In this document: positions 11,992 through 59,585 of the stretch, one piece after another | Layout: every line of letters starts with the position of its first letter | How positions within the stretch are numbered: the first letter of the stretch is position 1 | Assembly (NCBI GenBank): GCA_964016885.1 | Contig: OZ024759.1 | Span: forward strand, 35,650,001 to 35,714,000 | From: Eledone cirrhosa | Lineage: Eukaryota | Reading direction: 5' to 3' | Length of the DNA: 64,000 nucleotides | Program-made: the position numbers and the translations under genes | The notes under the pieces: model-generated | The model's database searches: none | What the model was told of the DNA's origin: nothing | Seen by the model: only the letters and a program-made list of their open reading frames with translations

Positions 11992-12314
11992 TTATCTATG
12001 TGATGTAGGGGTTTTGGGGCGAAGAGGTGTCTTTGGTGTTGAAGTTTTTGGTGTTGTTGGTAGGCGTCGCGCTGCACCCATCCTCTGTGCAACAGGTGTT
12101 GTACATCGAGATGAGCTCGGTGTGGTACTGTGTGGCCTTGCTGGAGTGGTCGGTGTTGATAATTTCGAGCTGTTATTGAAATTCGGTGTCTTTGGTCGAG
12201 GAGTGTTTCCTGATTGTAGTCCAGGAGATTTCGGTGTCCGGGAAGGTTTCGTGGTGGACAGGCTATGGGAGGAAGTACTCAACCGTTTGCTTCGACTCAG
12301 ATTTCCATTAGAAC
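11992..12314 (-). CDS. MACF1: Terminal coding exon, basic Thr/Pro-rich tail ([12 protein letters not shown]...[13 protein letters not shown])
   Basis: ccag|GT TCT phase-1 acceptor, 323 nt to TAA; GC-richer island in AT-rich DNA. Confidence 0.85.
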
Positions 12315-20960: not shown

Positions 20961-23337
20961 CATACATATATACACACATTTATATATATACACACATATA
21001 TATATATACACACATATATATATATACACACATATATATATATACACACACACACATGTGTGTATATATATACATGTGTATATATATATGCGTATATATA
21101 TATATGCGTATATATATATATATATATGCGTATATATATATATGCGTATATATATATGTGTGCGTATATATATATGTGTATATATATATGTGTGCGTATA
21201 TATATATGTGTATATATATATGCGTATATATATATATATGCGTATATATATATGTGTATATATATATATGTGCGTATATATATATGTGTATATATATGTG
21301 TATATATATATGCGTATATATATATATATACATACATACATACATTGGATTGACATGTATGAAATTTGTAGAAATTTGTTTTTTCCTACAAATTCCACAC
21401 TTGACGACCCAATAGATATATATATACACACACACACATATATATACACACACACATATATATATACACATACATACATACACATTATATATGTATATAT
21501 ATATGAGTGTGTGTGTGTTCCGTAAATTGTGACATACAAGTCAATTCTAGTCTCGAAAGACAATCAAGTCGCTGGCTTGGAGACAGACTTAACTCCGAGA
21601 TGGACTGGTGTCCTATCCAGGAGTATAGTGTTATCTTTCAGTCACTTACAGCAGTGAAAACTAAATAAGCTCCGACATATTGAGCCCCTGGTCATTAGAC
21701 TTACACTTTATTATATCCGAGTTCAAATCCCGCCGAGGTTTACTTTGCCTTTCATCCTTACGGGGTCGATAAAATAAAGTACCAGTAATGTACTGGGTAA
21801 TTGCTGGCCTTGTGCCTAAAGTAGAAACAATTATATCATATAACCCAATAATATCCTCCTCTATCCCTATGTTTATAGTTGGTGTAACAACCATTGATAC
21901 TACAGTTTTGTCTTCTGCTATATAACTGATATTGTCATCATTTAATGTTCACTTTTCCATGTTAGCATGGGTTGGACGTGTTATTACAGACCAAGTTAGC
22001 ATTTAATCCTTTAATGAACATATTTCTAATGAAATACTCTTTATTTCAGTTTATGAAGAATTTTGAAGGTCTTACTAAAATTATTAATTATTTCATTACT
22101 AAAATAGTACCTTCTTATATAAAATTATGATGGAAGATTTTGATTTAAATTAGAAACCTTTAAAATGGGTGATTTTATTTCATAGAACCAGAGCCGGTCT
22201 TGGCAGGATTGGTAACAAAAGGGTTAATTGGCGTTACCATTCTCTGAGACATCTTGCTCAAATACATCCCAGTTCCAGCACAGTTTCTATAGCTGGATGT
22301 CCTTCTCAACACCAGCCCTTTCACATAATATACTGGGTACATTTTGGCAAGATTTCTACAGCTGGATGTCCTTAATACCAACTCTTTCATACAATATACT
22401 GGGTACATTTTATTCTCGCTCAGCACTGGAGAGAATGTCTTATTCCTGATTAAAACAAGTCCTTTCTACCCTTTTTTGTTTGTTAAATATTCTAAATAGG
22501 TTTTTAAAATTCCAGCTTTAACTGGAATTATTTGCAGTAATTTGCTAGAGTTAAAGTAAACGGTACAATAACAAGACTTAGCAGCTCTTCTACACTTGTT
22601 CTTTTACAATGATAAAAATTCACATATTATACCCCAACCCCTATAAATCGACCCCTAGTTTTGGAGAGATCTTTTCAGGCTTAAAAGCCTAGACTTGTAT
22701 GCTGCAATTTATGGTATGTTACACACTGAAAGAACCAACCAAATCTCAGGATCTTTTTATATTTGAAAAATGAAAAGAGTAACGTTAAAGGACCCATTCT
22801 TTACTTTGAAGCTCCTTTCAATGTCAAATAGAAAAAGATTCTTTAATATGATTGGTTCAATAAATTTTTCCTCAGAATATATAATTGTTTAAACATGTTA
22901 CAATCTACATAGCAAGACAGAAGGGGATGTATATATATATAAATATATGCAAGAGAGTTTGTCCTCAGCGATATTAAACTACCTGTTAAGCTGGAAGAAA
23001 ACCCATCAGATCCTCTCTTTTTATACATTGTTGGATCAGGAGTTTTAGAGCGGAATGCTGCTCTCGTTTGAGAGACTCCATCTGCCAGTACAAATTGCTC
23101 CCGGAGTTCTGTGTTGGTTCGGTTTTTAGCTGCAGAGGCGAATAAGTTAATCAATATCTATAATTTCATATTACTTCAGAGAGATACAAAAATCACCCAT
23201 GAGAAAAAAATGTTTTTTTTTCAGAATGAGGCTTAATTCAGAACGAATTAACTTAAGCCGCGTCCTGAGATTTGAGCCCTGTTTTGAATCGAGCCTCGTT
23301 CTGAATTAAGCCTCGTGATATGAATATTCATATATAC

Positions 23338-25938: not shown

Positions 25939-28108
25939 CAACAACATATTTAAACACTACTCAAAATGTGTATATACAACTACATAACATGTTTATACAC
26001 AACATACACATACATACATACATCTATATATAGGCACAACTACTAAATACATACACAACTGCACAACACCTAAAACTACACACACAACTTATATTTATAT
26101 CTGATTTGAGCCTCCCCCCCCCATATCTATTTAGAATGGTCAAGAAAACTGATTATATCAACCCCAGTTTTTTACTGGTACTTTTCTTTTTATCGACTTC
26201 AAAAGGAATGTCTGAGGAAAGGGTCAATGGTCATAGTTTACAGGCAAAACTAGGCAACATGAGACCCAGGGGTAGACCCTGAGCAAGGAGGTTAGATAAT
26301 ATCCATGAGGTTGGCTGGTCTCGCTTAAGGATCCAGTTCGATCAAGTGGAGATGGTTGCTTATGACAGGACCTACTGGAAGGAGTGTTTGAGACTCTGCG
26401 CAGAATGGTGTGGTGGTGGGAGGAGGTTCCATGAGGTGGGAACATGTCTAAGGCTGAGAAATTCGGAACGCTCTTTTTACTGGTCTGTGTGTGAATTGAA
26501 CCTACAACCCTCCCTGGAATAAGTGGGGAAAGGAGAAGAAGAAGAAGTAGGAGGGTCGATAAAATAAAGTACCAGTAATGTACTGGGTAATTTGCTGGCC
26601 TTGTGCCAAAAGTAGAAACAATTATTTTAATTTCCTACCTTAACATCAGTATGAGTGGCCAGCTGTGGCTGGTTTGAACAGAAAGAGGTGAGAGAATTTT
26701 GGCCGTATTTGGCCAGTTTAAATACTGAAGGCTTAAGAAAAAACACTAATTCTTTGCCAATTCTCACATTTTATACAGAAGGAATTAACTATTGACAATC
26801 AATTAACTAGCATTGATCAATAATTAACGATGTAACAATTGATTAATAAAGGAGAAATTATTGATTGAGAATTGATTAACGATTTAACAATTGACTATTG
26901 TTAATTTATTGATTAATGATTGAAAAACAGTAGATAAAGAATTTATTAAACATTTATTAGCTATTGATTATAGGTAATTAATTGATTGATTGACAATTGA
27001 CGAGAAAAACTGGGAAAGTTTCAGTACTAAAAACGATTAATTTTGTATGAATTACAAGTAAGCCATGAGCATGGGTTTCATATTCTAACTCAGAGGTTCT
27101 CAAACTTTTTGGGCCACCTCACGGCCCTGTAATATCCTCAGCGCCCACCACCCCTATTTCCAGAGAGACCTGTCTATATGTAAATTGTAGATAATATATA
27201 ACATATAAATTTATTAATTTATATGGAATAAATAATATATATACTATGTATCATATATATTTTTTATTTTACTAGATTTATATATAATTTTTTCTACTTT
27301 TGGCACAAGGCCGCAATTACCCAGTACATTACTGGTACTTTATTTTATCGACCCAGTAAGGATGAAAGGCAAAGTTAACCTCGACGGGATTTGAAAGTCC
27401 GTAAAGGGACGTAACTCTCTGCTGGAAAGCATGGTGTCCGACTCTACAAATACTGGTGCATTATTTGATATTAAATATACTATATCATCTCTACCCACCC
27501 CCAGCGCCCCCTGGACCTTCTCAATGCCCCCGAGGGGGAGGAAGTAGTGCCCAGTTTGAGAAACTGTTCTAACTGAGCGTGACAAGAAAGAAGAAGATAT
27601 ATCTACTACAGCAGAATCTAACAACACTGCAAACTGTCATTCGAGGAAGAAGCTAAGAGGTGAAAATAAGCTAAACTTTCACAAACAAACAAACGAACAA
27701 AGAGACAGACCTTCCGTGCAATTAGGTACAACAATTAGCACTCATGATGCAACAAAGATATTAACACACAGAACATATTGTTGGAATCTTGTCTGGAAAT
27801 AGGACATACCTCGACATGGATCATTCGTTTCCAAGAACTCCTCAAGCGTGACCCATCCTCCACCAACTCTCACCATAACACTACTGTTAAGGAAGCGAAC
27901 CAACTTCAATTTCTGATTCTCACCAAACTAAAACAGAAAAATGGAAATAAGGTTTCATTTGTCAGATTTAATAGTGAAGAATTTACATGGAACATCGCTA
28001 TATATAGTTATATATTGAGTACCCTTCGAACGAAACAGTTCTAGTCTTGTAGAAGCCATTTTTATATCAAATTTATTTTATTAATATATATATATATAAA
28101 ATTTGTTT

Positions 28109-28142
<34 letters not shown>

Positions 28143-28316
28143 AAGGGTAAACAGAAATAACAACACAATCAGTACAGTATATGGAAGGGATACATTAGGT
28201 TAACGCTTGATATAGCAGGAATAGGGTCTTAAAGTTCCCCGAAACTGGATACCAATCTGGAGTACACCTCAACTTCCACCAGGAAATCTTTCGTATCATT
28301 GACATTTTCTTAGCTT

Positions 28317-28365
<49 letters not shown>

Positions 28366-31300
28366 TTTGCCATTCTTCTCTGCTAAAATGTACCACTGAG
28401 CTGATTCAAATTTTCCCAGCCAGCCATCCACCTAATCTACGAAGGTATTTTAGCCTACATATTGTCGTTAATATTATGATGTTCCCTGCTGTATTAGCGT
28501 TAAATTTTCCCTGCTGTATTAGCGATAAATTTTCGAGGGTTTCTCTTAGTAGCTTTTTCATGTCGTTAATATTATGATGTTCCCTGCTGTATTAGCGTTA
28601 AATTTTCCCTGCTGTATTAGCGATAAATTTTCGAGGGTTTCTCTTAGTAGCTTTTTTCATGACGTTATTATTGTTAATTTTACTGATGTAGTATTAACTT
28701 ATTAACTTGGATATTTACCATGCGGTATTCTAATCCTATTGTATCTCTCTCAGTTATTTACCATGCGACCCTCAGTTCCTACCCCCCCCCCCCCTCTATG
28801 CACTTCTTTAAGGCTTACTACCCTGTCTTTAACCTAATTCATTCAATCTGAAAATATTGAAGAGATAAGACACTTTGCCATTCTTCTCTGCTAAAATGTA
28901 CCACTGAGCTGATTCAAATTTTCCCAGCCAGCCATCCACCTAATCTACGAAGGTATTTTAGCCTACATATTGTCGTTAATATTATGATGTTCCCTGCTGT
29001 ATTAGCGTTAAATTTTCGAGGGTTTCTCTTAGTAGCTTTTTCATGTCGTTAATATTATGATGTTCCCTGCTGTATTAGCGTTAAATTTTCCCTGCTGTAT
29101 TAGCGATAAATTTTCGAGGGTTTCTCTTAGTAGCTTTTTTCATGACGTTATTATTGTTAATTTTACTGATGTAGTATTAACTTGGATATTTACCATGCGA
29201 CCCTCAGTTCCTACCTCACAATTTCCCTCCCCCCCACCCCCACACACCACCATAGTCTATTCGACCAATCAAACCTAGCATGCCATTTCCACTGCTGCTG
29301 CTGCTACTACCTGCCTAACTAACTCTCTCCTCCTCTGGCGCATCCCAACACACCCTGCCATTACCCCACCACCACTGTCCTTCTAGCCCTCAATTCTCCC
29401 ACCGTTAGGGATGGATGAGCTGGGAATACACGAGCAACTCTGAATCAATAGATGAAATATGAATCTGCGAGCTACCAAGCACCCACGTGAAGCGCCAACC
29501 CAGAGACCCTCCCCTACGAGTGTCGACAAATGCCCAAAACTCCGAGTTGGTACCATCAATGTAGGCTCAATGAAAGGAAGAGCAGGAGAAATCGTAGAAA
29601 TGCTAGAGCGAAAGGAAGTTGATGTATGCTGTGTGCAAGAGACTAGATGGAGAGGAGGGTCTGCTAGAGTCCTTGTAGGAAAAAGCCAGTGCTACAAATT
29701 TTTCTGGGTGGGAAATGACGATGGGATGGGTGGTGTAGGTATACTATTAGCTGACAAGTGGGTAGATAAAGTAATCTCAGTGTACAGGGTAAATGCAAGA
29801 ATCATTAAACTCAGACTAGTCCTGAATAAGACAATTACCACAATAATATCAGCTTACGCACCCCAATCGGGGCTGCCAGACGAACTTAAGGATAGGTTTT
29901 ACGAGTCCCTAATACACACTACTGCTCTAACAGACGACAAGGACTTCCTAATCATTGCAGGAGATTTTAACGGACACGTAGGTAAACACTGCGACGGCTT
30001 CAATAGAGTACATGGAGGCCATGGAGTTGGCACAAGGAATGAGGAAGGATTCAGACTTCTAGAATTCTGCGACGCCAATGACATGTCGATATGTAACACA
30101 AACTTTAAAAAACCCGACAACCACCTGATCACCTATAGATCAGGGGAGCACTCTAGTCAGTTAGATTTTATCCTCATCAGAGGACGTGACAGATGGACGG
30201 TCGTAAACACAAAAGCCTTCCCTAGTGAGGAATGTACATCCCAACATAGCTTAGTTGTCAGCGACCTCACGGTCAGAACTAGACGAGCCCTGAAACAGAG
30301 GCCAACCTGGAGAAGAAAGATCTGGAAGCTGAAAGTCCCCTCAACCAGTAACAGATTTAAAGATATTTTACTCAACGCCTACGACAGTAAAGAAGAACAG
30401 ATAGAGACATTTAACGTAGAAGAGAACTGGGAGTTCCTAAAAAATAACTTACTAGAGGCGACGGATGAGGTTTGTGGCTGGAGTAAGACCTCAAGCAGGA
30501 GGAGAGTGACTTGGTGGTGGAACAATAAGGTAGATGAAGCAGTCAAGGCCAAGAGACAGGCATGGAAAGAATGGAAGAACGGGGGGAGCAGGGTACATTA
30601 CATAGAGACCAAGAGGGAAGCTAGGCGACAAGTATACTTAGCTAGGAGGGAAGCAGAGGATAGAAAATTCAAGCATGTTTTACAACGTGAGGACCAGAAA
30701 CAGGAGGTATTCAAGATTGCGAGGCAGTGTGTCAGAGATAGTTGTGATGTCATTGGAGAGAAGTGTATCCGGAATGATAAAGGTGAGCTTGCCCTCACAA
30801 GTGCTGAGAAGAAAGATGCATGGAAGAGTCATTATGATAGATTACTAAATGAGGAGAATGCATGGGAAGAAGAGACCCTACCCCACGTAGACCCTATAGA
30901 GGGACCAGCAGTACAAGTCAGCGGCAGCGTAGTAAGTAAGGCAATCAGAGATATGAAGATAGGGAAGGCAACCGGTCCATCGGGTATAGCTGCCGAGATG
31001 CTGAAGGCATCTGGGTCTGTAGGTCACACTATAACCACACGTATCGTTAACCAGGTAATACTAGAGGGGGCCATACCAAAAGATTGGTGCAGTAGCATCA
31101 TTGTCAACTGCTACAAAGGTAAAGGCGATGCACTAGATAGAGGAAACTATAGAGGTATAAAGTTGATGGACCAGGTCATGAAAGTAACAGAAAGAGTTAT
31201 AGCACAGCTGATTAGGGACCGGGTGAATATAGACGAGATGCAATTTGGGTTTGTTCCAGGGAAAGGCACCACTGATGCGCTCTTCCTTGTGAGGCAATTA

Positions 31301-34300
31301 CAGGAAAAGTACCTAGCTAAAAGTAAGCCACTCTACTTGGCATTTGTCGACCTTGAGAAAGCCTTTGACAGAGTTCCACGTGCAGTAATCTGGTGGGCTC
31401 TTAGAAAACTAGGAGTAGATGAATGGCTTGTGAAAGCGGTACAAGCCATGTATAGGGGAGCAGTCAGCAAAGTTAGGATTGGCAATGAGTATAGCGAGGA
31501 ATTTAGCGTACAGGTTGGGGTCCACCAGGGCTCTGTTCTTAGCCCTCTCCTGTTCATCATAGTCCTGCAGGCAATAACGGAGGAGTTTAAGACCGGATGC
31601 CCATGGGAACTCCTGTATGCTGATGACCTCGCACTCATAGCTGAATCTATGGTAGAACTAGAGAATAAATTCCAAACCTGGAAGCAGGGACTAGAGAGAA
31701 AGGGCCTCAAAGTCAACATGACAAAGACTAAGGTCCTTATAAGTAGACGAGAAAACAGAACCCAGATCCCCTCAGGGAAATGGCCTTGCTCAGTATGTAG
31801 GAAAGGTGTAGGTAGGAACTCCATTCTTTGCCCCAAATGCAAACAATGGGTACACAAGAGATGTAGCGGGATCTCAGGAAGCTTAATTAAGAATGTAGGA
31901 TTCACATGCAGCAGCTGTGCTGAAACAGCAAGCAAACAGCCACAGGAAACAAGTACCACCAATCTCTGGGAGGGCCCTGTAGAAACAGTAGACAGCTTCT
32001 GCTACCTAGGTGACCGAATTAGCAACGGAGGTGGGTGCTCAGAAAGTACAATAACTAGGGTAAGAACGGGATGGAAGAAGTTTAGGGAACTACTACCACT
32101 GCTAGCTGCAAAAGGCTTCTCCCTCAGAATGAAAGGCAGACTGTATGATGCGTGTATCCGAACAGCGATGTTGCATGGTAGTGAGACCTGGGCGCTGAAG
32201 GTGGAAGACCTACGTAGATTAGAGAGAAACGAAGCCTGCATGCTCCGATGGATGTGTAACAGTAATATACGTGAACGACAAAGCATAAATGAATTGAGAG
32301 AGAGACTGAGCATAAGAGGAATCAAATGCTGCGTGCAGGAGAGGCGGTTACGCTGGTATGGACATGTGATGCGTATGAAGGATGACAGCTGCATAAAAAG
32401 GTGCAGAGCACTAGAAGTTGATGGAAACCGCGGAGTGGGGAGACCCAAGATGACTTGGGATGAGGTGATAAAAGCCGACCTTACCCAACTACACCTCTCA
32501 AAGTCAATGACACACGACCGTGACTTCTGGCGTCACGCAGTAATACAGGGTACCCGACCTCCCATGGGTACATGCTGAAGCATATAAACAATATGCCCCC
32601 CCCCCCCCCACCGCAAGGTGGTCGTGGAGGTGCCACGGCAAAAAAGCACCCAGCCCACACTGTAAAGTGGACGTGTAGGCGCCACGAAAAAGCACCCAGC
32701 ACTCACTGTAAATGAGGTTGGTGTTAGGAAGGGCATCCAGCTGTAGAAATCAAGCCAGATCAGTTCCTGTATGAGCAAGGCATGGTCAGCCGACCAGACA
32801 CTGCCCACAACAGGACAACCCGTCTAACCCATGCTAGCGTGGAAGAACGGACGTAAAACGGTGATGATGATGATGATATATATTCGAAATATGTACTTCT
32901 GCGTTCACAGATTGATTTTTTTTAGTTTCAGAAGATCCCATTAAGGGTGAAAGCACCAATTCTTTGCTTAAACCTTAATCTGTTATTTTAATAAATAGAT
33001 ATATATCATAGGCGTGTGAAGGCGTGTGGCTGAGTGGTTAGAGAATTGGATTCGCAATCGTAAGGTTGTGAGTTTGATTCCTGGACCAGGCGACGCGTTA
33101 TGTCCTTGAGCAAGACACTTTATTTCACGTTGCTCCTTCTACCTGGAGTTGCGACCGATAGATAGTATTAGCAATTGGAAAGACCAACGGAAACATTGTT
33201 CCCTCGGTCCGATTTGACGAAAGTCGATCGTTCCTATAATATATTATAATCATCATCCTTTAACATCTATCTTCCACGCTAGCATAGGTTACATGAGAAT
33301 TGTCCCACTTGAGGCAAGATTAGTCAGGTGACTGTGTCTTGCTCGTATAGGACTATCTGGCAGGTTTTCTATGGCTTAATGCCCTTCCTAACACCAACCA
33401 CATTTACAGTGGACTGGGAATTTTTTACCGTGTTACCTACACGACCACATTACAGCGTGGACTGTGTGTTTTGTTGTGTCACACCTACACGGCCACATTA
33501 CAGCGTGGACTGTGTGTTTTGTTGTGTCACACCTACACGGCCACATTACAGCGTGGACTGTGTGTTTTGTTGTGTCACACCTACACAGCCACATTACAGC
33601 GTGGACTGTGTGTTTTGTTGTGTCACACCTACACAGCCACATTACAGCGTGGACTGTGTGTTTTGTTGTGTCACACCTACACAGCCACATTACAGCGTGG
33701 ACTGTGTGTTTTGTTGTGTCACACCTACACGGCCACATTACAGCGTGGACTGTGTGTTTTGTTGTGTCACACCTACACAGCCACATTACAGCGTGGACTG
33801 TGTGTTTTGTTGTGTCACACCTACACAGCCACATTACAGCGTGGACTGTGTGTTTTGTTGTGTCACACCTACACGACCACATTACAGTGTGGACTGAGTT
33901 TTTTTGTTGTGACACCTACACGATCTCATTAGTTTGGACTGGATGTTATGGTACCAACATAACTTTATAGAGAACGGGGTAGTGTTAGTGGGAGGATGGG
34001 GTGTATATTTAATGGTGTTAAGAGGTGCCTACTGACTGTAGGTTTCGCTTTGTACATAGGCAAGGTGGGTCTTCTGTATTACTGCTTGGCACTAAAGATC
34101 TCGGTCCAGTGACATTGTCTTAGAGAGGTGCAAGTGTGTAAGGTCGGAATTTATCAAATCGTCCCAGGTTTTTCTGGGTCTACCTACTCCATATATATAT
34201 ATTACAGTTATATATATATATATATATTACAGTTAGATATATATATATTACAGTTAGATATATATATATATTACAGTTATATATATATATATATATTACA

Positions 34301-37300
34301 GTTAGATATATATATATTACAGTTAGATATATATATATTACAGTTAGATATATATATATTACAGTTAGATATATATATATTACAGTTAGATGTTATATAA
34401 AGGAGAACATCTTCTGTAAAACTGAAACTTACACTATATTGTCCGTCCTGGATTTTTTCTGCTTTGAATTGATGTCGACATTGGCACTGAGACAGCTGGC
34501 GTTCTACTTCGTCATGAATCATCTCCGAATCTGTCGCCTGACGCTTACCAGTCTTCAAACGAGCAGGTTTCTGTCAAATAAAAGTGATATCCATGAGTAT
34601 TATTAATTAATCAGGTTTGGGGACTGTTTAACCCTTTAGCATTTAAACCGGCCATATCCGGCCAGAATTCTCTCATCTCTTTCTGTTCAAACCAGCCATA
34701 ACCAGCCACTCATACTTATGTGAAGAGCATTGGGCTTGCAATCGAAAGGTTGTGAGTTCAATTCTCGGACCGAGTGATGTGTTGTTTCCTTGAGCAAGAC
34801 ACTTTATTTCACGTTACTCCAGTTTACTCAGCTGTAGAAATGAGATGATAGGACTGAGGCCCCTATCATTAAATTACCCAAGACACCTCCAATAAGATAT
34901 ACCTTGGAGGAGGCCAGCTAAACCTGCAAAGGTGTTACACACACTCATGCTAAGGTATTGTTCTCAAAATAAACAACATCAAAATCTCATAGATTCAATA
35001 TTATGTGAGGTAAAACCTTTACCACAAAAATACTATAGAATTTATAGAGTAAATTAAATGGTAAAGAGTGGAAATCATACAGAAAATTGATAATTTACAA
35101 AAAGTCTCTAACATAATATTGTACAATATTATTTGGTTAAATAATTCACTATGTAGCCACATGGTTTCAGGTTTAGTCCCCACTTTGGGGTACTTTAGGC
35201 AAATGTCTTCTACCAAAGTCTCAAGATGACCAGTACCTTATGAGAGGAATTTGGTGGACAGATACCCCAAAAACCCATTATATATATATATATATAATTC
35301 TCTCTTTCCCTTACCACTAGGCCACATGTCTATATATAGACACTACTGTCATCAATTTATACATTCACATATCTATACATTCACTATAGTTATCAATATA
35401 TACACCCACACAGTTATACATACATTCACTATAATAAATTCTGACTATTACTAATACCACCACTACCATGACCTCTACTGCTATTACAACTACTATACTA
35501 CTATATCATGATATCCATCTATCTAGGGCAGGTAAAATTCCCGAGATCCATGGACGAGTTCTCTCCAGCGGTCTCTGTCCCTCATTATCGCTGCCATGTC
35601 CTGCGTCTCCAACAGACCAGTGTCTGTCCTTAGGGCATCAACATATGTTAACCTTGGTCTTTCTCTTCCAGTGTGTCCATGCAGGGGCTCCCACAGGAGC
35701 ACTGAGTGCAGTGTCAACTCTGGATGTCGGTGAGCATGTCCAGCTAACCTCAGTCTCCTCTGTTCTACTCTCGAGCTGACCTTTGGGAGGCTCCCGTACA
35801 GCTCTGAGTTCTTCATCCTCAGTGTATACTGATTAATGTTCAGAGCTATCCTCAGCATTCTCGTGTAGCACCCATCCACCATCTGAGTGAGTTTCTTGGT
35901 CAGTGTCCAAGTCTCAGACCCGTACAGCAGCACAGACTCCACTACAGCAACGATGAGACGGATCTTCAGGTCTTTACATTCACTATAGCTATCAATATAT
36001 ACACCCACACAATTATACACACATTCACTATAGCTATCAATATATACACCCACACAATTATACACACATTCACTATAGCTATCAATATATACACCCACAC
36101 AATTATACACACATTCACGAAAGCTATTAATATATACACCCACACAATTATACACACATTCACTATAGCTATCAATATATACACCCACACAATTATACAC
36201 ACATTCACTATAGCTATCAATATATACACCCAGACATCTTTAAATAGGCTCTTACATGTCTATCTGGTTTTAAAGCAGCAATAAAGTTCCTGTAGATTAT
36301 TCTTCCAGTGTGGTTTTGGTCGAAAATATCAAACACAGCATTCAATTCTGTTTTGTTGGTGGGGAATTCTGCAAAATAAATATGAGACATTTTATTATAT
36401 TACATAGAATTATATGAGAAGATGATACGAGCAAAACCAACCAACAGGAGACCCAGGGGTAGACCCACCCCAAGCAAGATGGTTGGATACCATCCATGAG
36501 CTTGGCTGGTCTCGCTTGGGAATCCAGCCAGATCAGTTGGAAGCAGATGCTTCTGACAGGACCCACTGGAAGGAGTTTCGATTTACGAATATTTCTGGTG
36601 ATGGAGGCCCCTCAAGAAGGAATCAAGTTCATGAACCGAGATTCAACTGTCCTTGTAATTTGAAAACAATTAGACATTTAAAATTTCAATCAAATGTTTT
36701 TTATTTTAACCCTTTTAGCTTTATATTTACAGTTGTATAGTCACGGTAAAGGTTTTATCTTACATAATATCGAGTCTCCGAGATTTCAATGATGTTATTG
36801 TTTATTTTAAGAACAATATCTTAACATCAGTATGAGCTGCTGGTTATGGCCGGTTTCAAAAAGGGGAAAAAATTCTGGCCAGATACAGTCGATTTATATG
36901 TTAAAGGGTTAAACATTTGTTACCAAAATGTTTTAAATTAAAATTATTAAACTGTCGGAATCTTTAGAGAATATTTAAAATTATCTCTCAAAATTAAAAA
37001 TAACATTACTTACTGGTTTGTATCATTCCTTCTACAAATTCTTTACGAGTTAAAGCTCCATCGCAGTCTTTGTCTTGCCGCCTGAAGAAGTCTGTGATGC
37101 GAAGTTTCTTTTCTTGAATCCAGTTCAAATACCGTTGCCGCCAAAGATCAAAGTTAAAGCTCTTTAAACTCTCCAGCTAAACAAACAGATATTTCAACAT
37201 AAATATTATTTACACAACCATCATCATCATCGATATCAACATCATCATCACCACTATCATTATAATCATTATCACCATCATCATCCTAACCATTATTATT

Positions 37301-40300
37301 ATGTCTGAGTTCAAATCCCGCTGAGGTTAACTTTCCCTTTCATCCTTACGGGGTCGATAAAATAAAGTACCAGTAATGTACTGCGTAATTGCTGGCTTTG
37401 TGCCAAAAGTAGAAACTATTATCACCACATCATCCCCATCTGTTTTCCCAAATAGCAATGGTTAGCCAAGTCAGCCCTTATTTGGGGTCACTGATCTAAA
37501 GAATGCACAAGAGAGGTTGGCATGTCCTTGACAACAACTGAACACTTCTCTTGGCTCTTTCTTTGCTCTGGTTTCTTAACAAAAGACAGAAGAAACCATG
37601 TCTTTAGCTCCAGAAACAAGGAAAGATAATTACTGATGAACAACCAAGGGACATAATTACATAATTCAATGAGAGTTTTAAGGTTCTTTTTGTTCCTCAG
37701 TTAGAGCAAGAGTTAGCAAGCTTCCTGTTCAGTGTTTTTTTTCTTTTCTTTTAGGCAATGTTTAACGCTTAGATGCCCCTATCTGGCGTTAGCCCTTTTA
37801 ATGGCCTCTTAAAACATGCAGGGATACAGTGTGTTTACTGTAAACCTGAAATATAAAATGCTTAAAAAGCTCAAGACTCACCTCCATTAAATTGTCCAAC
37901 GCATCCTGTAATTTCTTCTTGCGGTCTACAGACATACGCCACACTGCTCTCCATTTGTTCTGTAGAGCAATCACTCGAGGATTGTGTCCATCTATTTCAT
38001 TTAATCTCCAATTACTAAAACACAGAGCAGACATCTTGTTAACATATTTGTTAGGGAAATCTACATCAAATTCCTCTTATACCCAGTTTTTCTCACAGCT
38101 CATCCATACATACTAACATCACATGTCCATACAAGCATAGTCTTCTCTCTTCCACACTACATCTGATTCCTCTTATATCCAGCTTTTCTCATAGCTAATT
38201 CATGCTTTGTCGTTCACATCCAATGCAGTTATACTGACTTCACTTCTCTCAAACTTTTGTCTTTTCTACGGCATGTGGCCTAGTGGTGAAAGAGTTGGAT
38301 TCAGTCATGAGGTTGTGAGTTTGATTCCTTAGTAGTTAGAAAGTTGCATTCACAATTGTGAGGTTGTGAGTTTCATTCCTGAGCCAGGCAATTAATTGTG
38401 TCCTTGAGCAAGATGCTTTGTTTCACATTGCTCCTTCTGCCAGGAGTTACGACCAGTAGATAGAATTAGCAATTGGAAAGACCAATGGACACATTATTTC
38501 CTTGGTCTGATCTGACAAGTTCCACCCCACATGGAGACATTTATGTAAGACTTTCAGAATACAGGTCAATTGCAAATATTTAAGCAAGTCTTTGAGAATG
38601 GTAAAACCATAAAGAAATCTAATTACCTTCCATAATGCCGTCCTTGAGATAGTTTTGATTCACTTGACACTATTTTGGTCAGCCGGTCAGCATCAGCATT
38701 CTTGCTTGTAATATCTTCATGAAGTTCCTACAACAGAAATAGAGACCATATTTCATATTTTACAGGCCACCAGACAATGTGAAGGTGCATGGCTTAGTGG
38801 TTAGAACATTGGGCTTGCAATCGAAAGGTTGTGAGTTCAATTCTCGGACCGGGTGATGTGTTGTTTCCTTGAGCAAGACACTTTATTTCACGTTGCTCCA
38901 GTTTACTCAGCTGTAGAAATGAGATGATAGGACTGGGGTCCCTATCATTAAATCACCGAAGACACCAACGAGATGCAACCATGTAGGAGGCCAGCTAAAC
39001 CTGCAGAGGTGTGAGCTGTCACACACACAGACAATGATCTTGAACCAGTCTAAATTTTATCAAAGTTCCTACAACAGAGTTCTTCAGTTCAAACTGCAGA
39101 AATCATTCAAATGGGGGGCTTAATTCCATAGTGAAACACATACCTGGAGTTTCTTTTAACATTTACATTACACTATATTTACTATTATATTTTCACGGTA
39201 AAAGCTTACATACTGATCTCTCATAATATCGAATCTATGAGATTTTGATGTTATTTATTTTGAGTACAATACCTTAACATCAGTATGAGCAGCCAGATAC
39301 AACCAGTTTGAATAGAAAGAGATGAGAGAATTCTGGCCGGATATGGCCAGTTTAAATGCTAAAGGGTTAAACAAGGTCTTTACAAAAATATACTTGGAGT
39401 CTGTTTAACAACGTGACTACACTAACAACAACAACAACATACCTGGTGTTCTTTTAATAAGGCCTCTACTACTCTAATATCCTCTGGAGTTGGATCTTTC
39501 TCTTTAGTTGCCAATAACACTTGACAGTCAGTTAACCAGGCCAATAATTCTTCTAACAAAGCAGCGTTTCCCTGAATACTCTTTAGTGCATCTTGCAGTC
39601 GTTGTGCTCGCGAGTGAGATCGTTGCATTAACTGAAATTAAAACAATAAGGAATGACATTAACCCTTTCATTACCATATTTCTAATGAAAGACACTGTCT
39701 CTGTCATTAACCCTTTCATTACCATATTTCTAATGAAAGACACTGTCTATGTCATTAACCATTTTGTTACCATATTTCTAATGAAAGACACTGTCTATGT
39801 CATTAACCCTTTCATTACCATATTTCTAATGAAAGACACTGTCTATCTCATTAACCCTTTCATTACCATATTTCTAATGAAAGACACTGTCTCTGTCATT
39901 AACCCTTTCATTACTATATTTCCAATGAAAGACACTGTCTATCTCATTAACCCTTTCATTACCATATTTCCATGAAAGACACTGTCTATGTCATTAACCC
40001 TTTCATTACCATATTTCTAATGAAAGACACTGTCTATGTCATTAACCCTTTCATTACCATATTTCTAATGAAAGACACTACCTATGAGTTTTAAGTAAGT
40101 TTTAAAATAATCAAGAATTCAGACAGATTTAATAAAATGATTTTCTCATTAAGTTGGTGTTTGGAACACAACACAACAAAGGTTCCCCCTAATACTCTGA
40201 CATATGTATGTATAAATGCATCATTTAATAAAAATAGTAGTTTCTACTATAGGCACAAGGGCAGCAATCTGAAGGGGAGGGGAAAGTTGAATAAATTGAC

Positions 40301-40801
40301 TCCAGCGTGTTACTGGTACTTTATTTTATCAACCTTGTCAGGATGAAAAGCAAGGCTAAGATGAGTGGGATTTAAACTCAGAAAGTAAAGGGCCATAACT
40401 TAATGCCACAAAGCATATCTGATACTCTACAGATACTGCCAATCTACCAAATAATAATTGTTTCTACTTTAGGCACAAGGCCAGCAATTACCCCAGTACA
40501 TTACTGGTACTTTATTTTATCGACCCCGTAAGGATGAAAGGCAAAGTTAATAATACTTACTTGATCCCATCGTGTCTGGGTGATTGTAAGGTAATATTTA
40601 ACAAATCTAATAGCGTTTGGGTGACAATGTTTTAAAATTCTTTCAGCAAGTGTTTTGATTTTGTCAACTGTGTCTTGATGGTTGCGAAGTCGTTCTTGGA
40701 ATTTCTGAATAAAAAGAAAAAAAAAGAATGTATGTATGTATCAGTGTGTGGGCATGTGTGTGTGTGTCAGTATGTCTGTGTAAATATGTCAGTGTGTGTA
40801 T

Positions 40802-40838
<37 letters not shown>

Positions 40839-43800
40839 AATGTGTGTATCACAATATGGCTAACTGAATGAGTTGGTGTTAAACCCAACGTAATGTCACT
40901 GTTGTAACTGATTATATATATATGTAAAAGATAAACAGAAATAACAACACAATCGGTACAGTATATGGAAGGGATATATTAGGTTAACGCTTGATATAGC
41001 AGGAAGAGGGTCTTAACGTTTCGGACGCTAGTCCTTCATCAGAAGAAAGGACATCGGTTTGGAAGTGGTATATCCTCATCATGAATTTAGTGATGTTGAG
41101 AAAGGATGGTGGTAGTAACAATTGTGTTGGGATGGTGGGTAGTGGTGTTGGGATGGGGGTAGTGGTGTTGGGATGGTGGGTAGTGGTGTTGGGATGGGGG
41201 GTAGTGGTGTTGGGATGGGGGGTAGTGGTGTTGGGATGGGGGGTAGTGGTGTTGGGATGGTGGGTAGTGGTGTTGGGATGGGGGGTAGTGGTGTTGGGAT
41301 GGGGGGTAGTGGTGTTGGGATGGGGGGTAGTGGTGTTGGGATGGGAGTAGTGATGTTGGGATGGGGGTAGTGGTGTTGGGATGGGGGGTAGTGGTGTTGG
41401 GATGGGGGGTAGTGGTGTTTGATGGGGTGGTGGGGGTAGTGGTGTTTGATGGGGTGGGGTGGTGGGGGTAGTAGTGTTGGGAAGGGGGGGGGGGGTTAGT
41501 ATTAGCTGTGATAGGTATTGGGAGGGGTGGTGGTGGTGGTAGTCAACTTACTTCATGCCGTTCAATAAGGTGAATTATAGAAAGTTCCTCATCTGGAAGA
41601 GGTCGGAATTTTAATTCAGATTCTACAGTGGGAAGAAATTCTCTCATCACTTGGACCACATCTTGGAACTCCTCAGCCTGTTAAATAGAATAGAAATAGA
41701 AATAAAGGTAAGATGAGTTAAGCTCAATACACTTTTTTTATTCTTTGTTCTTCAGGAACATTAAAACACCTGTAGCGAGGTATAAATAAATAATAATTGT
41801 TTCTACTTTTGGCACAAGGCCAGCATTATCCCAGTGCATTACTGGTACTTTATTTTATCGACCCCGTAAGGATGAAAAGCAAAGTTAACCTCGGCGGGAT
41901 TTGAACTCAGGCCAAGACCAGGTATACAGATACTATTAAATCCAAATTTAGAGTACTTCAACAAAAATATCTAACAAAGAATTTTACCACATATGGTAAT
42001 ATTTATTTTCAATTCTTATTGTTGATCGACTTTCATCAAATTGGACCGAGGAAACAATGTTTCCGTTGGTCTTTCCAACTGCTAATACTATCTTTCGGTC
42101 GCAACTCCAGGTAGAAGGAGCAACGTGAAATAAAGTGTCTTGCTCAAGGACATAATAACATCTCCCGGTCCAGGAATCGAACTGACAACCTCACGATTGC
42201 AAATCCAGTTCTCTAACCAATCAGCTACATGCCTTCACAAATATGGTAATAAATGATATATTTACCAAAGTCAAAGCCTCCTTTAGTCGAGCTTCTCGAC
42301 TTTCACTCAAGAGATTTATTCTGCTCCATAGAATAACAAGATCCTCAATATGTTGAGCAGGAATACTTCCAGCAGACTTCAACGCCTCCAAAGTCTGTTC
42401 TCGGACTTCAAGTTCTTGTTGCACTGACTGAAAATTAGAAAATACAAAAATAGAAAATAAACCTGGTAAGGATGAAAGCAAAGTTAACTTCAACAAGATT
42501 TGAATTCAGAACATAAAGGGTCATAACACTGTGCCATAAAGCACGTTTCCTGATGCTTTACTGATTACTGCCAAACCATTTAATTGTTTCTACTTTTGGC
42601 ACAAGGCCAGCAATTATCCCAGTGTATTACTGGTACTTTATTCTATCGACCCCGTAAGGATGAAAGGCAAAGTTAACCTCGGTGGGATTTGAACTCAGAC
42701 CCTAAAGGGCCGTAACTTTATGCTGCAAAGCATGGCATCCGACCCTCCACTGATACTGCCAATCACCGCCATTTAATCCACTTAATAATCAAATAATTTA
42801 TAACTTTTAGTAAATTACTCCAAATTTTTCATTAATTAAATGAAATACAAAGTATGCCACTGTAAATATGGTAATAAACGTATTATCTAATTAACTCCTT
42901 AGCATTTAAACTGACCATATCCGGCCAGAATTCTTTCACCTCTTTCTGTTCAAACTGGCTTTAACTGGCCACTCATACTGATGTTAAGGTATTGTTCTCG
43001 AAATAAATACTTTCAAAATCTCATAGATTCGATATTATGTGAAATAATTATGTGAGGTAAAGCCTTTACCATGAAAATACAATAGTATATATAGAGTAAT
43101 GTAAATGTTAAAGGGTTTAAACCCTTTAACATTTATTTTACTCTATATCTACTATTGTATTTTCATGGTAAAGGCTTTACCTCGCATAATATCGAATCTA
43201 TGAGATTTTGAAAGTATTTATTTTGAGAACAATACCTTAACATCAGTATGAGTGGCCAGTTACAGCCAGTTTCAACAGAAAGAGGTAGAGAATTCTGGCC
43301 GGTTTCGGCTGGTTTGAACATTAAAGGGTTAAATATAGCAACTAACCTTGTGTTGTTCTATCAAGAGGTTCACAGTGTCATAATCTCCAAGTATACATTC
43401 ATCTTTAGACAATGTAGCTTCTGCTTTACTTAGCCATTCTTGTAAGGAATTTAATGCATCAGATACGCGTCCAGAGGTGAGCAACGCTTCATCAAGTTTG
43501 TTTTGACTAAAATATAAAAGAATAAACAATATTTAATCCTCTTAAAACCAAATTACCTGAAACCACCCTTGGTTTTATGATGCAAAATTATTTATTAGAA
43601 AAAATTCTCAACCTTTGTTTTTTAAGAGGAAGAAATTTATTTGTTTTGAATCATCATCATCAGCCATCTTCCATGGGTTGGATGGGTTTGTCCCAATTGA
43701 AGCAAGATTGGTCGGGTGACCGTGTCTCGCTCATACATAAATTTATACCATACCAAACCACCTAAAACAGACCCTAGTTCTATGATACAAAACTCTCAAT

Positions 43801-46800: not shown

Positions 46801-49657
46801 GTGTAGCAGTGGGTATGTGTGTAGAAGTTGTTTTAAGTGATAGTATATGTATGTGTGTGTGTGTGTGTAGCAGTATGGAGTAGGTGAGGAGTGTGTGTGT
46901 GTTGACATTCCATTGAACATGTCATTGGAGGTATGAGAAAGAAATTACATTCACTTAAAACTACACACACACATCTCCACATCTCCACAAACACACACCA
47001 CACACACACATCCACACATCTCCACACACACATCTCCACTCGGACACAGCTCCACACGTTATAATTAGTTATTTCAATGAGCTGGTAAGAGAGATGAGGC
47101 TAAAGGCAGTCACTGAAATGTGCTAGAAATAGCAGCCACATCACCCTAAACTTACACAATGAATGCAGTCATTAAAATAAGAGGGTACATTTAATAGAGT
47201 AGTCCTTAATACATTATGTCGGGAATAAAAGAGACAGGGTAGCCACGGCTGGAATGTCCTTGATCATAGAGTCTACTCCATGGTCATGGCTGGCCTAGGG
47301 TTAAACAAGAAAACTGCCAACTGGACAATATAGTGGATACCTGTATTATGTTTGGGGTAATTAATTTAAAGAAAACAGGATGGTCACGACTGGAACGTCG
47401 TTTAATGAGAGCTGCACGAACAGAGGTAACCTAGAGCTAAATAACAACAACCACGACACATTCTGTAATGTAACCCTAGATATACTTATGTTTGTAGACT
47501 GGAATTAGTCCTTAAATTAGCTCGATCAGGACTGACCTAGGGCTAAACAACAACGAGGGGGTACACTTTATATAATGTAGTCCTAGGTATACTATGTCTG
47601 GGAGGGAGACAGTGGATAAAAGACAGGATGGTCACTGTCATAACTGACCTAGGGCTAAACAACACATTATATAATGTACTCCTAGATATACTATGTCTGG
47701 GAGGGGAGACACAGTGATGGTCAAAGACAGGATGATCACTGTCAGAACTGACCGAGGGCTACCAACACATTATATAATGTACTCCTAGATATACTATGTC
47801 TGGAACAACAACAAAATAAACAAAACAAATGGCTAAAAAAGATAGGATGGTCGCAGTCGGTTCCGGTTGATTAAAGCTGGCCTAAGGTATACAATGTCTG
47901 GGAGGGACAGGATGGTCATTGTTGGAACGCCTTTGATTAAAGCTTACCCAGGGCTAAACAACAAAACTGTAAAATATGTTTCTATACAGGTAAATATAAC
48001 TACATAACCACACAAGAACATTTCTTTAACGAGAGAATGAACAGGTAAAAAGTAACAGGTATGAACTAAAGTACGTAGACATTAGAAAGGTGAAGAAGAA
48101 AAGTTGTATAGTTAGTTATTACACCTGTTAACTAGAAACAGGTCACCTGTAATGACACATCGCCATTTTTAACTGGTTTTTGCTTTTAACTTTGTTTTTA
48201 AGATTTGTTTTCGTTTATTTTTTACCTGAGAAAAGTTTAATGACCAAAATATTTCATTTTTTTCTTTCTTCGTTTAACTTCACGTGGAATAAAATATGGA
48301 ATTTGATAATTAAATATTTTAAAGGTAAAAAAGAAACAGGTGGGAAATAATCTCGATAGTTTAATATTCACCTGTAGCGGGTTTTTATTATGAAGTTTGA
48401 TGTGGGTCATAAAATTAAAGGTAAGGTGAATAAATATACGTGTGTGTGTGTATGTGTAACGCCCTACGGTCGAGTTTAAACTATTTCGTTTTCGTCAGAT
48501 AAAATAGGGAGACATGATATGAAGGTTAAAAAACACTTGTGAATAGTGCAGTTTTAAATCAACATAATAAAATACATGGAACTCTTTTAACCATCTTTTG
48601 ATCTTATATTATTTATACTCCAGTCCTACAAACTGTAGAGTGCTACTTATCCGATATCTGCATTGCTTTATTGTACTACAATAAAACTCACCTCCTATAT
48701 ATATATATATATATATTATATATACATGTGGAAGCTTAGTAAAATCGAAGCTTTGGCTGTGGGCAAGCAAAGTCGATCTACTATATGAATGAGTTAGCAA
48801 AGCACTCAATAAGGGTAGGTCCTTACAGTAACAACATACGTTTAAATAGCTTGACAAATTGAACATTGTGGTAGGCAAACCCTAACACAATACCAGAGCA
48901 ACGAAAGAACTAACAGGTTAGATAAATATATATATCTTTAATGTCTTTTTCGTTTTAATGGCTAAACTAAAGAAATAAAATCGTTACCTATAACTTGTGT
49001 CGACATTTGGCCAAACTAGAAACTCGTAATCTGAAAGGTTGTTTGGAGAGTGGTAATTGCTGCTGTCGTCCATAACTTTACTGCCCCCGAGAGATTTGTA
49101 AAGCGGCAACAACAATGTCACACACTCTCTCTCTCTCCCTCACACACACACACACACTCTCTCTGTCTGTCTAATGACAGCCTACCTCTCTAGTGACAAG
49201 CTACATACCTATCTATCTATTCACCTCTCTCTCATGACAGCCTACCTACATACCAATCTATCTGTCCCCCCCCCTCTCTTCAGTGACAGCCTACATACCC
49301 CCCCCCCTCTCTCTTCAGTGACAGCCTATCTATCCACCCCTCTCACCTCCATACCTGTACATAACTGAAAGGTAGGCGCTGGAGAAATGTCACTCACCCG
49401 TTCACACACACACACACACTATCTCTCTTACACACATACTATATCTCTCTTACACACACACACACACACTATCTCTCTTACACACACACACACTATCTCT
49501 CTTACACACACACACATACTATATCTCTCTTACACACACACTATATCTCTCTTACACACACACCTGCCTCCACCAAGCTAGAGAAGAACTTGACAAGAAT
49601 TATTTACACTAAAAACTTGTGTTGTTGTAGTTGTAGTCTTTTGGTAGTACAACTAAA

Positions 49658-49708
<51 letters not shown>

Positions 49709-51626: not shown

Positions 51627-51692
<66 letters not shown>

Positions 51693-54600
51693 CATGTGTG
51701 TGTGTGTGTGTGTATGTTGGACAGTAGTACTACCATATATGGTAAATTGTGTCACAATAACTGACTGACTTTCTCTAGATTAAATAGAGAAAGTAAACAA
51801 CTATATATGTGTGTATGTAAATATATATATATAGATACACACACATATACATACACACACGCATATACATACCTATACACACACACACACACACACGTCA
51901 TGTTTGATGACAGATCTTGTCTGTCAGCTTTCTAAGCAGCAGATAAACTAGTTTATAGTTTAAAATCATCTCATTTGGAAGGTGTAGTTGATGATTCTAG
52001 AAGATCTGAGGGGTGAGGGTTTAAGTTCCTGCCTATGAATGACAATGTGTGTATGTGTGTGTGCGTGACAATGTGTGTATGTGAGAGAGAGTGTGTGTGT
52101 GTGCGTGACAGTGTGTGCAGGAGTGTGTGTGTGTGTAAGTGACAGAGAGTCAGTACAACTGTGAATAGAGTGCAAATGAAATTTTTGAAGGCGTTGATAT
52201 TTAAAATATTTAAACATAACAGTTATCTCTCTCCCACATATTTATTATAGATTGTAGAAATATGACTAACAGCCGAGACACAATCATCAACATAAACGGT
52301 GGGTAGAATGCCCTAACTTTCTGCAATATAAACAGTGGGTAGAATGCCATAACTTTCTGCAATAAAGACACACCACAAACAGTTACAGCTTTATAGTTTA
52401 ACCTCTCTTTCTCCTCTACCCTTTATTGTCATACACAAAAAAAAATAAAATAGTGAAATATACAGAAAAAAAAAAGAAATTGCGCTCATGTTTTAGAAGT
52501 CAACTTGCCATATGCATAAGCCTCACTGAGGAGATTTTATAAAATTGAAACATGTCTTGTTCACCCAGTTTGGCTCATAAACAATGACCACTCCCACTAC
52601 ATTGTTTTAAATTTTCCTAAAAGATTTGGATCAGCTGAAGCTATAAGAGTTCTCTCCCTTACTGACCTGCTTCTCATCACCAGGACACCCCTTAACTTTC
52701 CTCTCTTACAGTCTCTTCACTCCTGCCCTATGTGTGTGTGTGCGTATACGTGTGTGCGAGTGTATGTGTGTATATATATATGTGCGAGTGTATGTGTGTA
52801 TCTGTGTGCGTGAGTGAATGTGTGTATCTATGTGTGCAAGTGTGTGTGTGTATATATGTGCGCGTGTATGTGTGTATATATGTGCAAGTATGTATGTGTG
52901 TATCTGTGTGTGCGAGTGTATGTGTGTATATATCCCTATGTGCTCTCTGTGTACAAAAAGCCTAAGAAAACCACTCCTCATTTAACATAGCCTAGCCGAT
53001 ATATCCTTCCCTCCTCCCCAAACAACTAAACGACAGCGTAATCTAGTGTGAGACTAATTGGTTTGTACACAACAATTGCACATTGTTATAAATTACAACT
53101 GGTTTATCAGGTACGAAGCCTATTAATATGCAATATATTCTGTTGAAAATATTCTTACCATTTCAATTACAGATTCATTAACAAAAACCAAACACCACCA
53201 CCTCAACTTTTTAATAATACATAATAAAACAATATAAAAACAATACATGATATAATTAAACATATACAATACACACAGTATAAGTTTTACTTTATTCAAG
53301 ATTCACATTCCTGGTCGTGGCGTTTGTTGTTGTTGTCTTGTTTATGAATATTCATAAGCTATTGTGTGTTTTAAACATCCACTGTGCAGAATTGCAGAAT
53401 ATATTTCTCTATTGTGAATTGTTATAATGAAATAAAGTATGTTAATGATAACAAGAACAATGATTTAAATGGTAACGATGAGTAAATTAATTAAGGAAAG
53501 AATCTTAACTCTCCAAAGACACTCGCAGATTTCTTTGAGTGAAAATAAAATACGGAAACAAAGGCCAAAATATTTGTTAGAAAAAAAAAACATTTGTTAG
53601 AAGTATATATTAATAGTAACATGAAAAGTGATTACATTTTTAGCGATAAGTTAATTAATTTGGGGAAAAACTTAACTGACCAAAAACTGTAATAGATTCT
53701 TCTGTTGATGGAAACAAACAAAAATATATATCGAAATATTTGTTAAAAAAAGCCATTAATTTATTGGAGACAGAACTTGTGAAAAACTAACAAATATTGT
53801 CAATAAGATATTAAACAGTATAAGAAAGACTTCGGAATCTAATCAATATAATTCTGATATCAGTAAGTTGGTAGCTTGATGAGAGCATGGTATGGTAGGG
53901 TATAACAAAGCTGGACCTTTTCACTTAACCCTTTAACTACAAACCCACCCAAACCAGTTCTGGTTCTATGAAAAAGTCCCCCATTTTAAAGGTTCCCAAT
54001 TTAAATTAGGTTACTATCTTACTAATGAAATAATAAATAATTTTAGGAAATCCCTCAAAATTCTTCATTAATGTAAAATAGAATCTATTTCATTCGAAAT
54101 GTAGCTTCAGCCTATGACATAACTACATGCTATGATATGTCCTATGACTTAGCTTCATCTTATGACATGTCTTATGAGACAGCTTCATAAACAAATCTTA
54201 CCTTTTTGAGACGACAGATCGAACAACGTTCCATTTGTTCTTCAGTTGATCTAACATGGCCTGGAGAATATCTCGGTCCTGGTCATTCTTTGTACATCGG
54301 TCTTTAAGATTTCGGCCAAGTCTTGTTGTGGAATAATAGAGGGAATGTTTAGCTGCCAGTTGGTGTTGGAAGAGCTGATGGAAACAAGGGGGAAAAAATA
54401 ACCCAAAATATAGAGTTAGAATACCAGGAAAAAGGGAACCAAATTGGTGTTTAGAGAACTTCTAAAATAAAGAAGAAATGTAAATATCTGGTTGACTTAA
54501 GCAGCACTGGGAAAATTTGAAAAATTCGAAATGCGGTCCTCCCAACATAGATTACTATAATAATAGTTGAGCATTATAAATAACAGAAGGTAGTCATTGG

Positions 54601-59220: not shown

Positions 59221-59585
59221 ATATATATATATATGTGTATATATATATGTATTTTATACCTTGACACGGAGTAACTGGCTAATGTGGGTTTCCATGTCGA
59301 CTGGGTTGGGCTGGACATCAAAGAGATAAGCGGCAATAACAAGACGATAAAATGAGAGATGAAGAACATGAAGAGAAATGAGGAGAAATGAGGAGAAAAT
59401 GGAGGAAGTGGGTTGCAGGTAGGGTTGGGGGAGGGTTCGGTTAGAGGAGAGACACAGAGAAGATAAGAGAGAAAAGAGAAGATAACAGGAGATTAGATAA
59501 GCTTGAATGGGTGAAGAAATAAGAGAAGGAAGGGAAATAATAAACAATAAAGACTGGCATGTAGTTTAATAATTAATAAATTACT

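Follow-up and report, generated by a model that had tools for sequence, protein, structure and literature searches.

An alternative first exon inside the longest intron of an Eledone cirrhosa spectraplakin gene was analysed and, in our judgement, it is very probably real, spliced and conserved, yielding a short isoform. The gene lies on the minus strand of the window, by which the whole analysed DNA stretch of 64 kb is meant. Taken as a whole, the evidence is probably best explained by a first exon from which an 84-kDa, C-terminal-only protein, a predicted stabiliser of the microtubule shaft, is made. The features of the exon, its surroundings and the exons it is joined to are presented in Table 1.

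Table 1. Positions of the features discussed, numbered within the window.
Feature	Position	Strand	Basis
Last long-form exon before the shared part, phase-2 donor	54202..54374	-	Homologue alignment, X2 record 16
GA/GT microsatellite-rich stretch, probable location of the start site	49112..49260	-	Sequence; contains in-frame stop 49142-49140
Likely 5' UTR of the first exon, including the unused weak AG before 49080	49074..49111	-	X2 record 13
Alternative first exon, coding part: ATG, acidic leader of 28 codons, AG, phase-2 donor	48988..49073	-	Sequence, tblastn, end of X2 record 13
High-copy genomic repeat, about 50 nt into the intron past the donor, outside the exon	48800..48935	.	Own-genome search
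First shared exon: remnant helix of the preceding repeat and start of spectrin repeat 1 of 3	43347..43506	-	X2 record 9, homologues, model
Spectrin exons 1-3 of six	42427-42266, 41677-41552, 40704-40561	-	Exon model, Pfam
Spectrin exons 4-6 of six	39631-39443, 38727-38627, 38014-37882	-	Exon model, Pfam
EF-hand pair exons	37176-37014, 36368-36256 (36256..37176)	-	Pfam, structure match
GAR exons	34570-34433, 27927-27810 (27810..34570)	-	C488, C490, D541, C543 of the model
147-nt phase 1-1 tail exon	22983..23129	-	Absent from P0001, P0003
Tail exons	17180-17079, 12314-11992 (stop) (11992..17180)	-	Basic S/T/R/P tail without SxIP

Position and sequence of the exon

The host intron (54201-43507; 10,695 nt) was the longest of the 20 introns measured in the window. 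Both flanking exons are of phase 2, the upstream one ending at 54202 and the downstream one beginning at 43506. The leader starts with the minus-strand ATG at 49073-49071, runs for 28 codons with a net charge of -5 and is followed by AG/gtaacg after 48988. A 186-nt stretch around the exon was single-copy in the species' own 3.0-Gb genome. For the repeat at 48800..48935, 39 listed matches besides the self-match were obtained with 90-96% identity (40 of 2446 candidates were scored). The sequence-only reading, made earlier from the letters of this DNA, had placed a unique sequence with a phase-2 donor in the longest intron and had spliced it to 14 downstream exons, and all of this was confirmed. 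By exon borders and frame the donor at 48988 fits the exon at 43506, and the 86 coding nucleotides with the 14 exons give 2205 nt, corresponding to 734 aa and 83.8 kDa, with no internal stop and with GT-AG borders at every intron.

By its sequence alone the exon is not above chance and its donor is weak. With a crude matrix built from 20 of the gene's own donors, the donor after 48988 scored 1.6 versus 5.2-11.6 for those 20 real donors, and of the 120 rival phase-2 GT donors in the same intron that follow an open ATG, 41 scored equally high or higher. The search of the leader against Pfam gave 0 families, and the protein search with the 50-aa open frame around it returned 2 candidates, none with E <= 1.

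Transcript contigs at the junction

The words of the exon were found in two sequencing runs, X1 and X2, which belong to one study and whose library type is not on record. On 43300-54450, the X1 contigs were intronic and resembled genomic DNA; the three relevant X2 contigs (records 13, 16 and 9) tracked exons. Letters 21-144 of record 13 (172 nt) were placed on 49111-48988, with 28 letters left past the donor. Record 16 (7592 nt) covered 54376-54202 and likewise had 28 letters left past the donor, and record 9 (1549 nt) began at 43508. A remainder of 28 letters is expected on each path, because the graph was built of 31-mers and the donors at 48988 and 54202 have only the terminal AG in common. 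The exons from 43506 to 27810 total 1547 nt which, together with the shared AG, equals the 1549 nt of record 9. The three numbers fit the joining of both donors, 48988 and 54202, to the acceptor at 43506. The 48988-to-43506 junction predicted by the sequence-only reading was supported in that record 13 stops exactly at the donor with the expected extra letters; in E. cirrhosa the join rests on contig arithmetic in one sample, the 28-letter overhang being below the 31-letter bar for bridging. The bins 49252-50739 were covered in X1 and without cover in X2, a gap which proves nothing. At 52226-52719, two low-depth intronic X2 contigs (2.3 and 3) were observed without any sign of splicing.

The exon is most likely a first exon, as had been proposed. 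Record 13 continued unbroken for 31 nt past 49080, and the homologues P0001, P0003 and P0013 start at the matching Met. Both observations disfavour the alternative that had been offered alongside, a cassette exon of 93 nt or a little more within the long mRNA, which would add about 31 residues between two spectrin repeats. The geometry of such a cassette is possible: its phases are 2-2, the frame is open from 49080 and up to 49139, and in-frame AGs are present within the GA repeat. However, the pyrimidine fraction of the 49080 acceptor was 0.47, the lowest of the 21 determined (0.53-0.94 for the 20 real acceptors), and the corresponding 54202-to-49080 junction was not seen in record 16, which is unbranched at the 54202 donor and has the same 28 leftover letters as record 13. 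Since contigs drop rare variants, a cassette might exist as a minor form, but altogether it is very improbable.

The first 20 letters of record 13 were unplaced on the genome, which would agree with a transcript start located elsewhere, either in an upstream non-coding exon or in a (trans-spliced) leader, with the promoter not adjacent to the exon. An upstream non-coding exon would leave the protein unchanged. Against a distant start, no AG acceptor was found at 49113-49112 or within 25 nt downstream, and the 20 letters would fall on the edge of the GA/GT microsatellite, where alignment probably skips repeats, as with X1 record 5 at another microsatellite. A distant start is rated as improbable.

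Conservation of the leader

With the first shared exon as query, 12 proteins were obtained. The leaders of P0001 (682 aa) and P0003 (676 aa) were 60% and 68% identical, respectively, to the window leader from the Met to the last codon of the exon, and in the comparison with these two none of the 2000 shuffles reached the score. By tblastn, residues 1-30 of P0001 and 1-27 of P0003 mapped onto 49073-48990. The core DY[EQ]FLVWPNVD[ST]SY is conserved in all three leaders, and in P0001/P0013 (both 682 aa) and P0003 the homologous leader runs straight into QNKLDEA of the shared exon. Conservation of the peptide in relatives, a check named by the sequence-only reading, was found in P0001 and P0003 together with the same junction. 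P0001/P0013 and P0003 were each derived from a single contig of 2634-3004 nt. Because in the window this coding sequence extends over 37 kb, P0001 and P0003 appear to be spliced transcripts. They are likely from other coleoids, and the tree places them next to the octopus pair as its sister (SH-aLRT 100). The leader was not found in any named octopus protein; P0002, P0017 and P0018 of O. bimaculoides all have the long junction. It is due to the conservation of the leader and to the X2 contig border at the donor that the exon rises above chance.

Domain content of the predicted 734-aa protein

The domain content predicted earlier, about three spectrin repeats, EF-hands, GAR and tail with neither an actin-binding nor a plakin domain, was upheld by Pfam and the model. 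The six exons within 37882..42427 complete three spectrin repeats. With P0003 as a proxy, three spectrin repeats, an EF-hand pair and a Pfam GAS2 domain (E 6e-30) were detected, and the protein matched the MACF1 EF-hand and GAR structures 5VE9 and 5X57. In the predicted structure (mean pLDDT 71.9), residues 1-28 (pLDDT < 50) and the tail are disordered, and the predicted fold opens with a short helix ahead of repeat 1, which would place the cut near a repeat boundary. The window model contains CQC at 488 and DPC at 541, which we take to be the zinc site of the GAR. The tail comprises 189 residues with a net charge of +24. No [ST]x[IL]P (SxIP) motif was found in the 734-aa model, where derived motifs or unseen 3' exons are possible; after the GAR the motif was present in 3 of the 28 proteins scanned. 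The plakin domain is not in the short isoform, the plakin exons being located 85-115 kb upstream of the first exon, and no CH1-CH2 actin-binding domain was detected in the short-isoform model or the homologues.

The tail exon 22983-23129 is likely optional, and its omission would result in a 685-aa form. It was missing in P0001, P0003, P0005, P0006 and P0024 and present in some other homologues. The donor preceding it is the end point of X2 record 9, a sign of branching. In the 6.5-kb GAR intron (window ~29400-33000), long minus-strand open frames resembled, by eye, an antisense retroelement.

The host gene

As judged from the profile searches and the tree, the host gene is a second mollusc-annelid paralogue and not the orthologue of Shot/MACF1, which is the gene on contig C7. 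In the own genome, CH, plakin SH3 and GAS2 matches were found in order on C7 at 22.26-22.39 Mb, and another GAS2 match on C20, the contig of the window, fell inside the window. The C7 gene has the same phase-2 intron, with a length of < 1 kb. The canonical spectraplakin with CH1-CH2, plakin, rod, EF-hands and GAR occupies G000:C7:22,217,000-22,387,000 (L009-L024, L065-L069); it has several very large plectin-repeat exons and falls together with chordates, arthropods and a snail protein.

Upstream of the window, the C20 gene contains spectrin repeats, a plectin-repeat exon and plakin exons, and it reaches to at least C20:35,815,588. P0030 (SH3_10, plectin, spectrin, GAS2) was colinear in tblastn along C20 through the plakin domain, rod, EF-hands and GAR, and on this colinearity they are taken as parts of one gene. 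With the actin-binding-domain profile made of 13 proteins, matches with E <= 1.7e-7 were obtained to six exons of C7, and the best E over the 464 kb searched on C20, a region with one 200-N gap, was 0.75. No CH domain was found within 400 kb upstream, and Pfam was run on 16 of the 111 candidate upstream ORFs. On the upstream side, the region ends at a BCCIP gene of the same strand (C20:36,024,335). The host gene is probably without any actin-binding domain. The sequence-only reading had contrasted the short isoform with a full-length actin-binding form of the same gene, which is probably wrong given this result and the location of the canonical gene on C7. Repeats dominated an ORF-against-ORF comparison of C7 and C20, for which the profile search was substituted. 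The upstream neighbours L056, L058 and L062 gave Pfam matches to BCCIP, Nup84/107 and p24/GOLD.

A quick, midpoint-rooted tree was made of 23 rows over the C7 core of 536 residues, with long branches left out. The window gene was placed in a group of 12 mollusc, annelid and unnamed rows with an SH-aLRT of 100, and C7, the snail P0036, chordates, arthropods and a nematode fell outside it. The window core was 94% identical to its nearest named protein, from Octopus bimaculoides; its identity was 324/511 with Capitella versus 216/505 (43%) with C7. In P0124 (Intoshia linei), a long branch, the exon before the junction was closer to the second paralogue than to the canonical gene.

A 51-nt exon of the long form, 59260-59310, is another optional one: P0002 and P0017 have it, P0018 does not. 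The O. bimaculoides models P0002 and P0017 have their start at G000:C20:35,739,180-35,739,410 (L027), past the plectin-repeat exon, and their short N-terminus is unrelated; the models may be split, or this may be a further internal start. Seven near-identical CH-domain matches, six of them with one internal stop, were observed at G000:C18:5.3-9.8 Mb.

Short forms in other molluscs and an annelid

Of the 27 second-paralogue proteins holding the junction, 15 begin with a short unique leader and 12 have the upstream exon; length filters (94-2000 and 375-1194 aa) were applied in the protein searches, and short forms are enriched for that reason. One leader is common to Pomacea, Babylonia and Nucella entries (P0008, P0024, P0025; score 118, 0/2000 shuffles). 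P0008, a sequencing-run contig with this leader, and P0016, which has the long junction, are identical in 712/712 downstream residues, which indicates that one gene makes both forms. In Physella, another leader is found in three RefSeq isoforms, and a further isoform has the long junction. The snail leaders are unlike the cephalopod leader at the same junction, and no significant likeness of the latter to gastropod, bivalve or annelid leaders was detected (best 65/2000 shuffles). A single origin of the leader is therefore not claimed, and the trait common across the clades, going by the sequences compared, is the junction and not the leader peptide.

The differences between the leaders would also agree with short forms outside cephalopods being annotation artefacts or independent inventions, the trait then being restricted to cephalopods. 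In addition, the entries of Lottia, Capitella, Sinanodonta and Nucella, and one of Pomacea, carry the label 'hypothetical', and the leaders of Lottia, Sinanodonta and Capitella may be gene-prediction splits at the long intron. Nevertheless, the leader common to P0008, P0024 and P0025, the origin of P0008 from a sequencing run with P0016 as its long-junction sister, and the Physella set of leader and long-junction isoforms argue against a cephalopod-only trait, which we consider unlikely. It is possible, although we hold it with some doubt, that the actin-free mollusc-annelid gene has had an internal promoter at this one intron since before the phyla split; its product would be a natural mini-spectraplakin, a MAP-like microtubule stabiliser that is directed by a swappable leader and that in neogastropods has turned into a gene of its own.

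In Babylonia and Nucella (P0024, P0025, P0029), the first shared exon begins with an eroded version of the remnant helix. Such erosion would be expected without long-form splicing, and a mini-only gene is possible in the neogastropods. No short unique leader was found in canonical spectraplakins among the 43 other rows, which are mostly long cluster representatives and do not constitute a fair test.

Discussion

Transcription of the short form would be started by an internal promoter near 49130-49250. The GAR and tail of the resulting protein would bind the microtubule lattice and stabilise the shaft, with no actin binding and no plus-end tracking. Fold-back inhibition would not take place, the actin-binding domain and the long rod being missing, and the protein would always be open. 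A docking role is likely for the conserved aromatic leader, a disordered segment which may stand in for the plakin and plectin-repeat anchors used by the long form. In this manner the gene would switch between a long linker of junctions or filaments to microtubules and a small MAP-like stabiliser.

The shaft-binding mechanism, to which we give moderate confidence, is borrowed from fly and mammalian domains that are 42-43% identical over the core. According to the available text of a study on these proteins (10.1101/122010), the GAR and tail jointly confer strong shaft localisation and microtubule stabilisation, SxIP is required for EB1 recruitment, and auto-inhibition requires the actin-binding domain and the rod. 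The same text reports that in fly tendon cells the GAR and tail are required and the actin-binding, plakin, EF-hand and SxIP parts are dispensable (10.1101/122010). The domain set of the short form is nearly the set required there.

Of the two roles suggested by the sequence-only reading, the microtubule-only binder is better supported than a dominant-negative of the gene's own actin-microtubule linker, because the own long form probably lacks an actin-binding domain. A broader version of the second role is that the short form acts mainly as a competitor or trans-regulator, occupying the lattice or binding to partners of either the long form or the C7 spectraplakin; in one variant its EF-GAR part could engage the C7 actin-binding domain. 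In the accessible parts of the sources, the EF-hand and GAR of fly Shot fold onto the actin-binding domain (10.1101/122010) and ELMO is bound by the last spectrin repeat of MACF1 (PMC8012552), and C7 does encode both CH domains. However, with an own long form seemingly devoid of the actin-binding domain there would be no cis actin link to break, the conserved leader suggests a positive targeting role, and the contigs of some relatives carry the short form without a branch to the long form. Trans-regulation as the main role is thus quite unlikely, and shaft binding is the preferred reading.

To our knowledge, the C-terminal fragments of spectraplakins have so far been laboratory constructs. A natural, conserved 84-kDa form would mean that the microtubule-binding end serves an independent function. 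The short form is small enough for cloning, expression, knockout and structure solution, and it offers a direct test of the question raised by tendon cells, where Shot acts via GAR and tail without actin linkage. Given the second paralogue, the label MACF1 or dystonin on a mollusc gene often does not denote orthology to MACF1/dystonin.

In the available text of two reviews, invertebrates are ascribed one spectraplakin gene, with fly and worm named (PMC8012552, PMC3352950). The literature covered, with few subscription papers in it, contained no description of a C-terminal-only spectraplakin isoform or of a second lophotrochozoan gene and no discussion of the Physella and Babylonia models. What is new here is the conserved mini-spectraplakin and the second paralogue; the short snail models were already in automatic annotation. 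These models, Physella acuta XP_059145967/970/971 and Babylonia areolata XP_076458945/946 ('MACF1 isoforms 6/7-like'), belong to the same paralogue and have a unique leader at the same junction, but the leader is unrelated to that of the window.

In the order of spectrin repeats, EF-hand pair, GAR and basic tail, the short form is like Drosophila Shot, vertebrate MACF1 and dystonin. In contrast to these, it has no SxIP and is encoded by a separate paralogue with 43% identity to the C7 core. The MACF1 isoforms, as far as described in the text available, are of ~600-800 kDa and all have the plakin domain (PMC8012552, PMC4914211), whereas the short form of 84 kDa is without it. In MACF1c, MACF1-4 and the Shot D-type, alternative starts drop actin binding and keep the microtubule-binding end, as is the case here. 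These isoforms retain most of the giant protein, according to the accessible parts of the papers (PMC3352950, PMC4914211, 10.1101/122010), whereas only the last three repeats are kept in the short form.

Short C-terminal isoforms without CH domains are produced from internal promoters in dystrophin (Dp71/Dp140/Dp260) and nesprin-1-alpha2, as outlined in the available text (PMC7372313, PMC3981789, PMC4924313). The present exon resembles first exons of the Dp71 type: it is unique and joins the shared 3' exons in frame. The C-termini of the Dp71-type and nesprin short isoforms anchor to membranes, whereas the end retained here is the predicted microtubule-binding GAR and tail. The GAS2-like proteins are, like the short form, small GAR-bearing microtubule binders; in them, by the accessible part of the source, the GAR is paired with a CH domain (PMC9145010), while in the short form it is accompanied by spectrin repeats and EF-hands and no CH.
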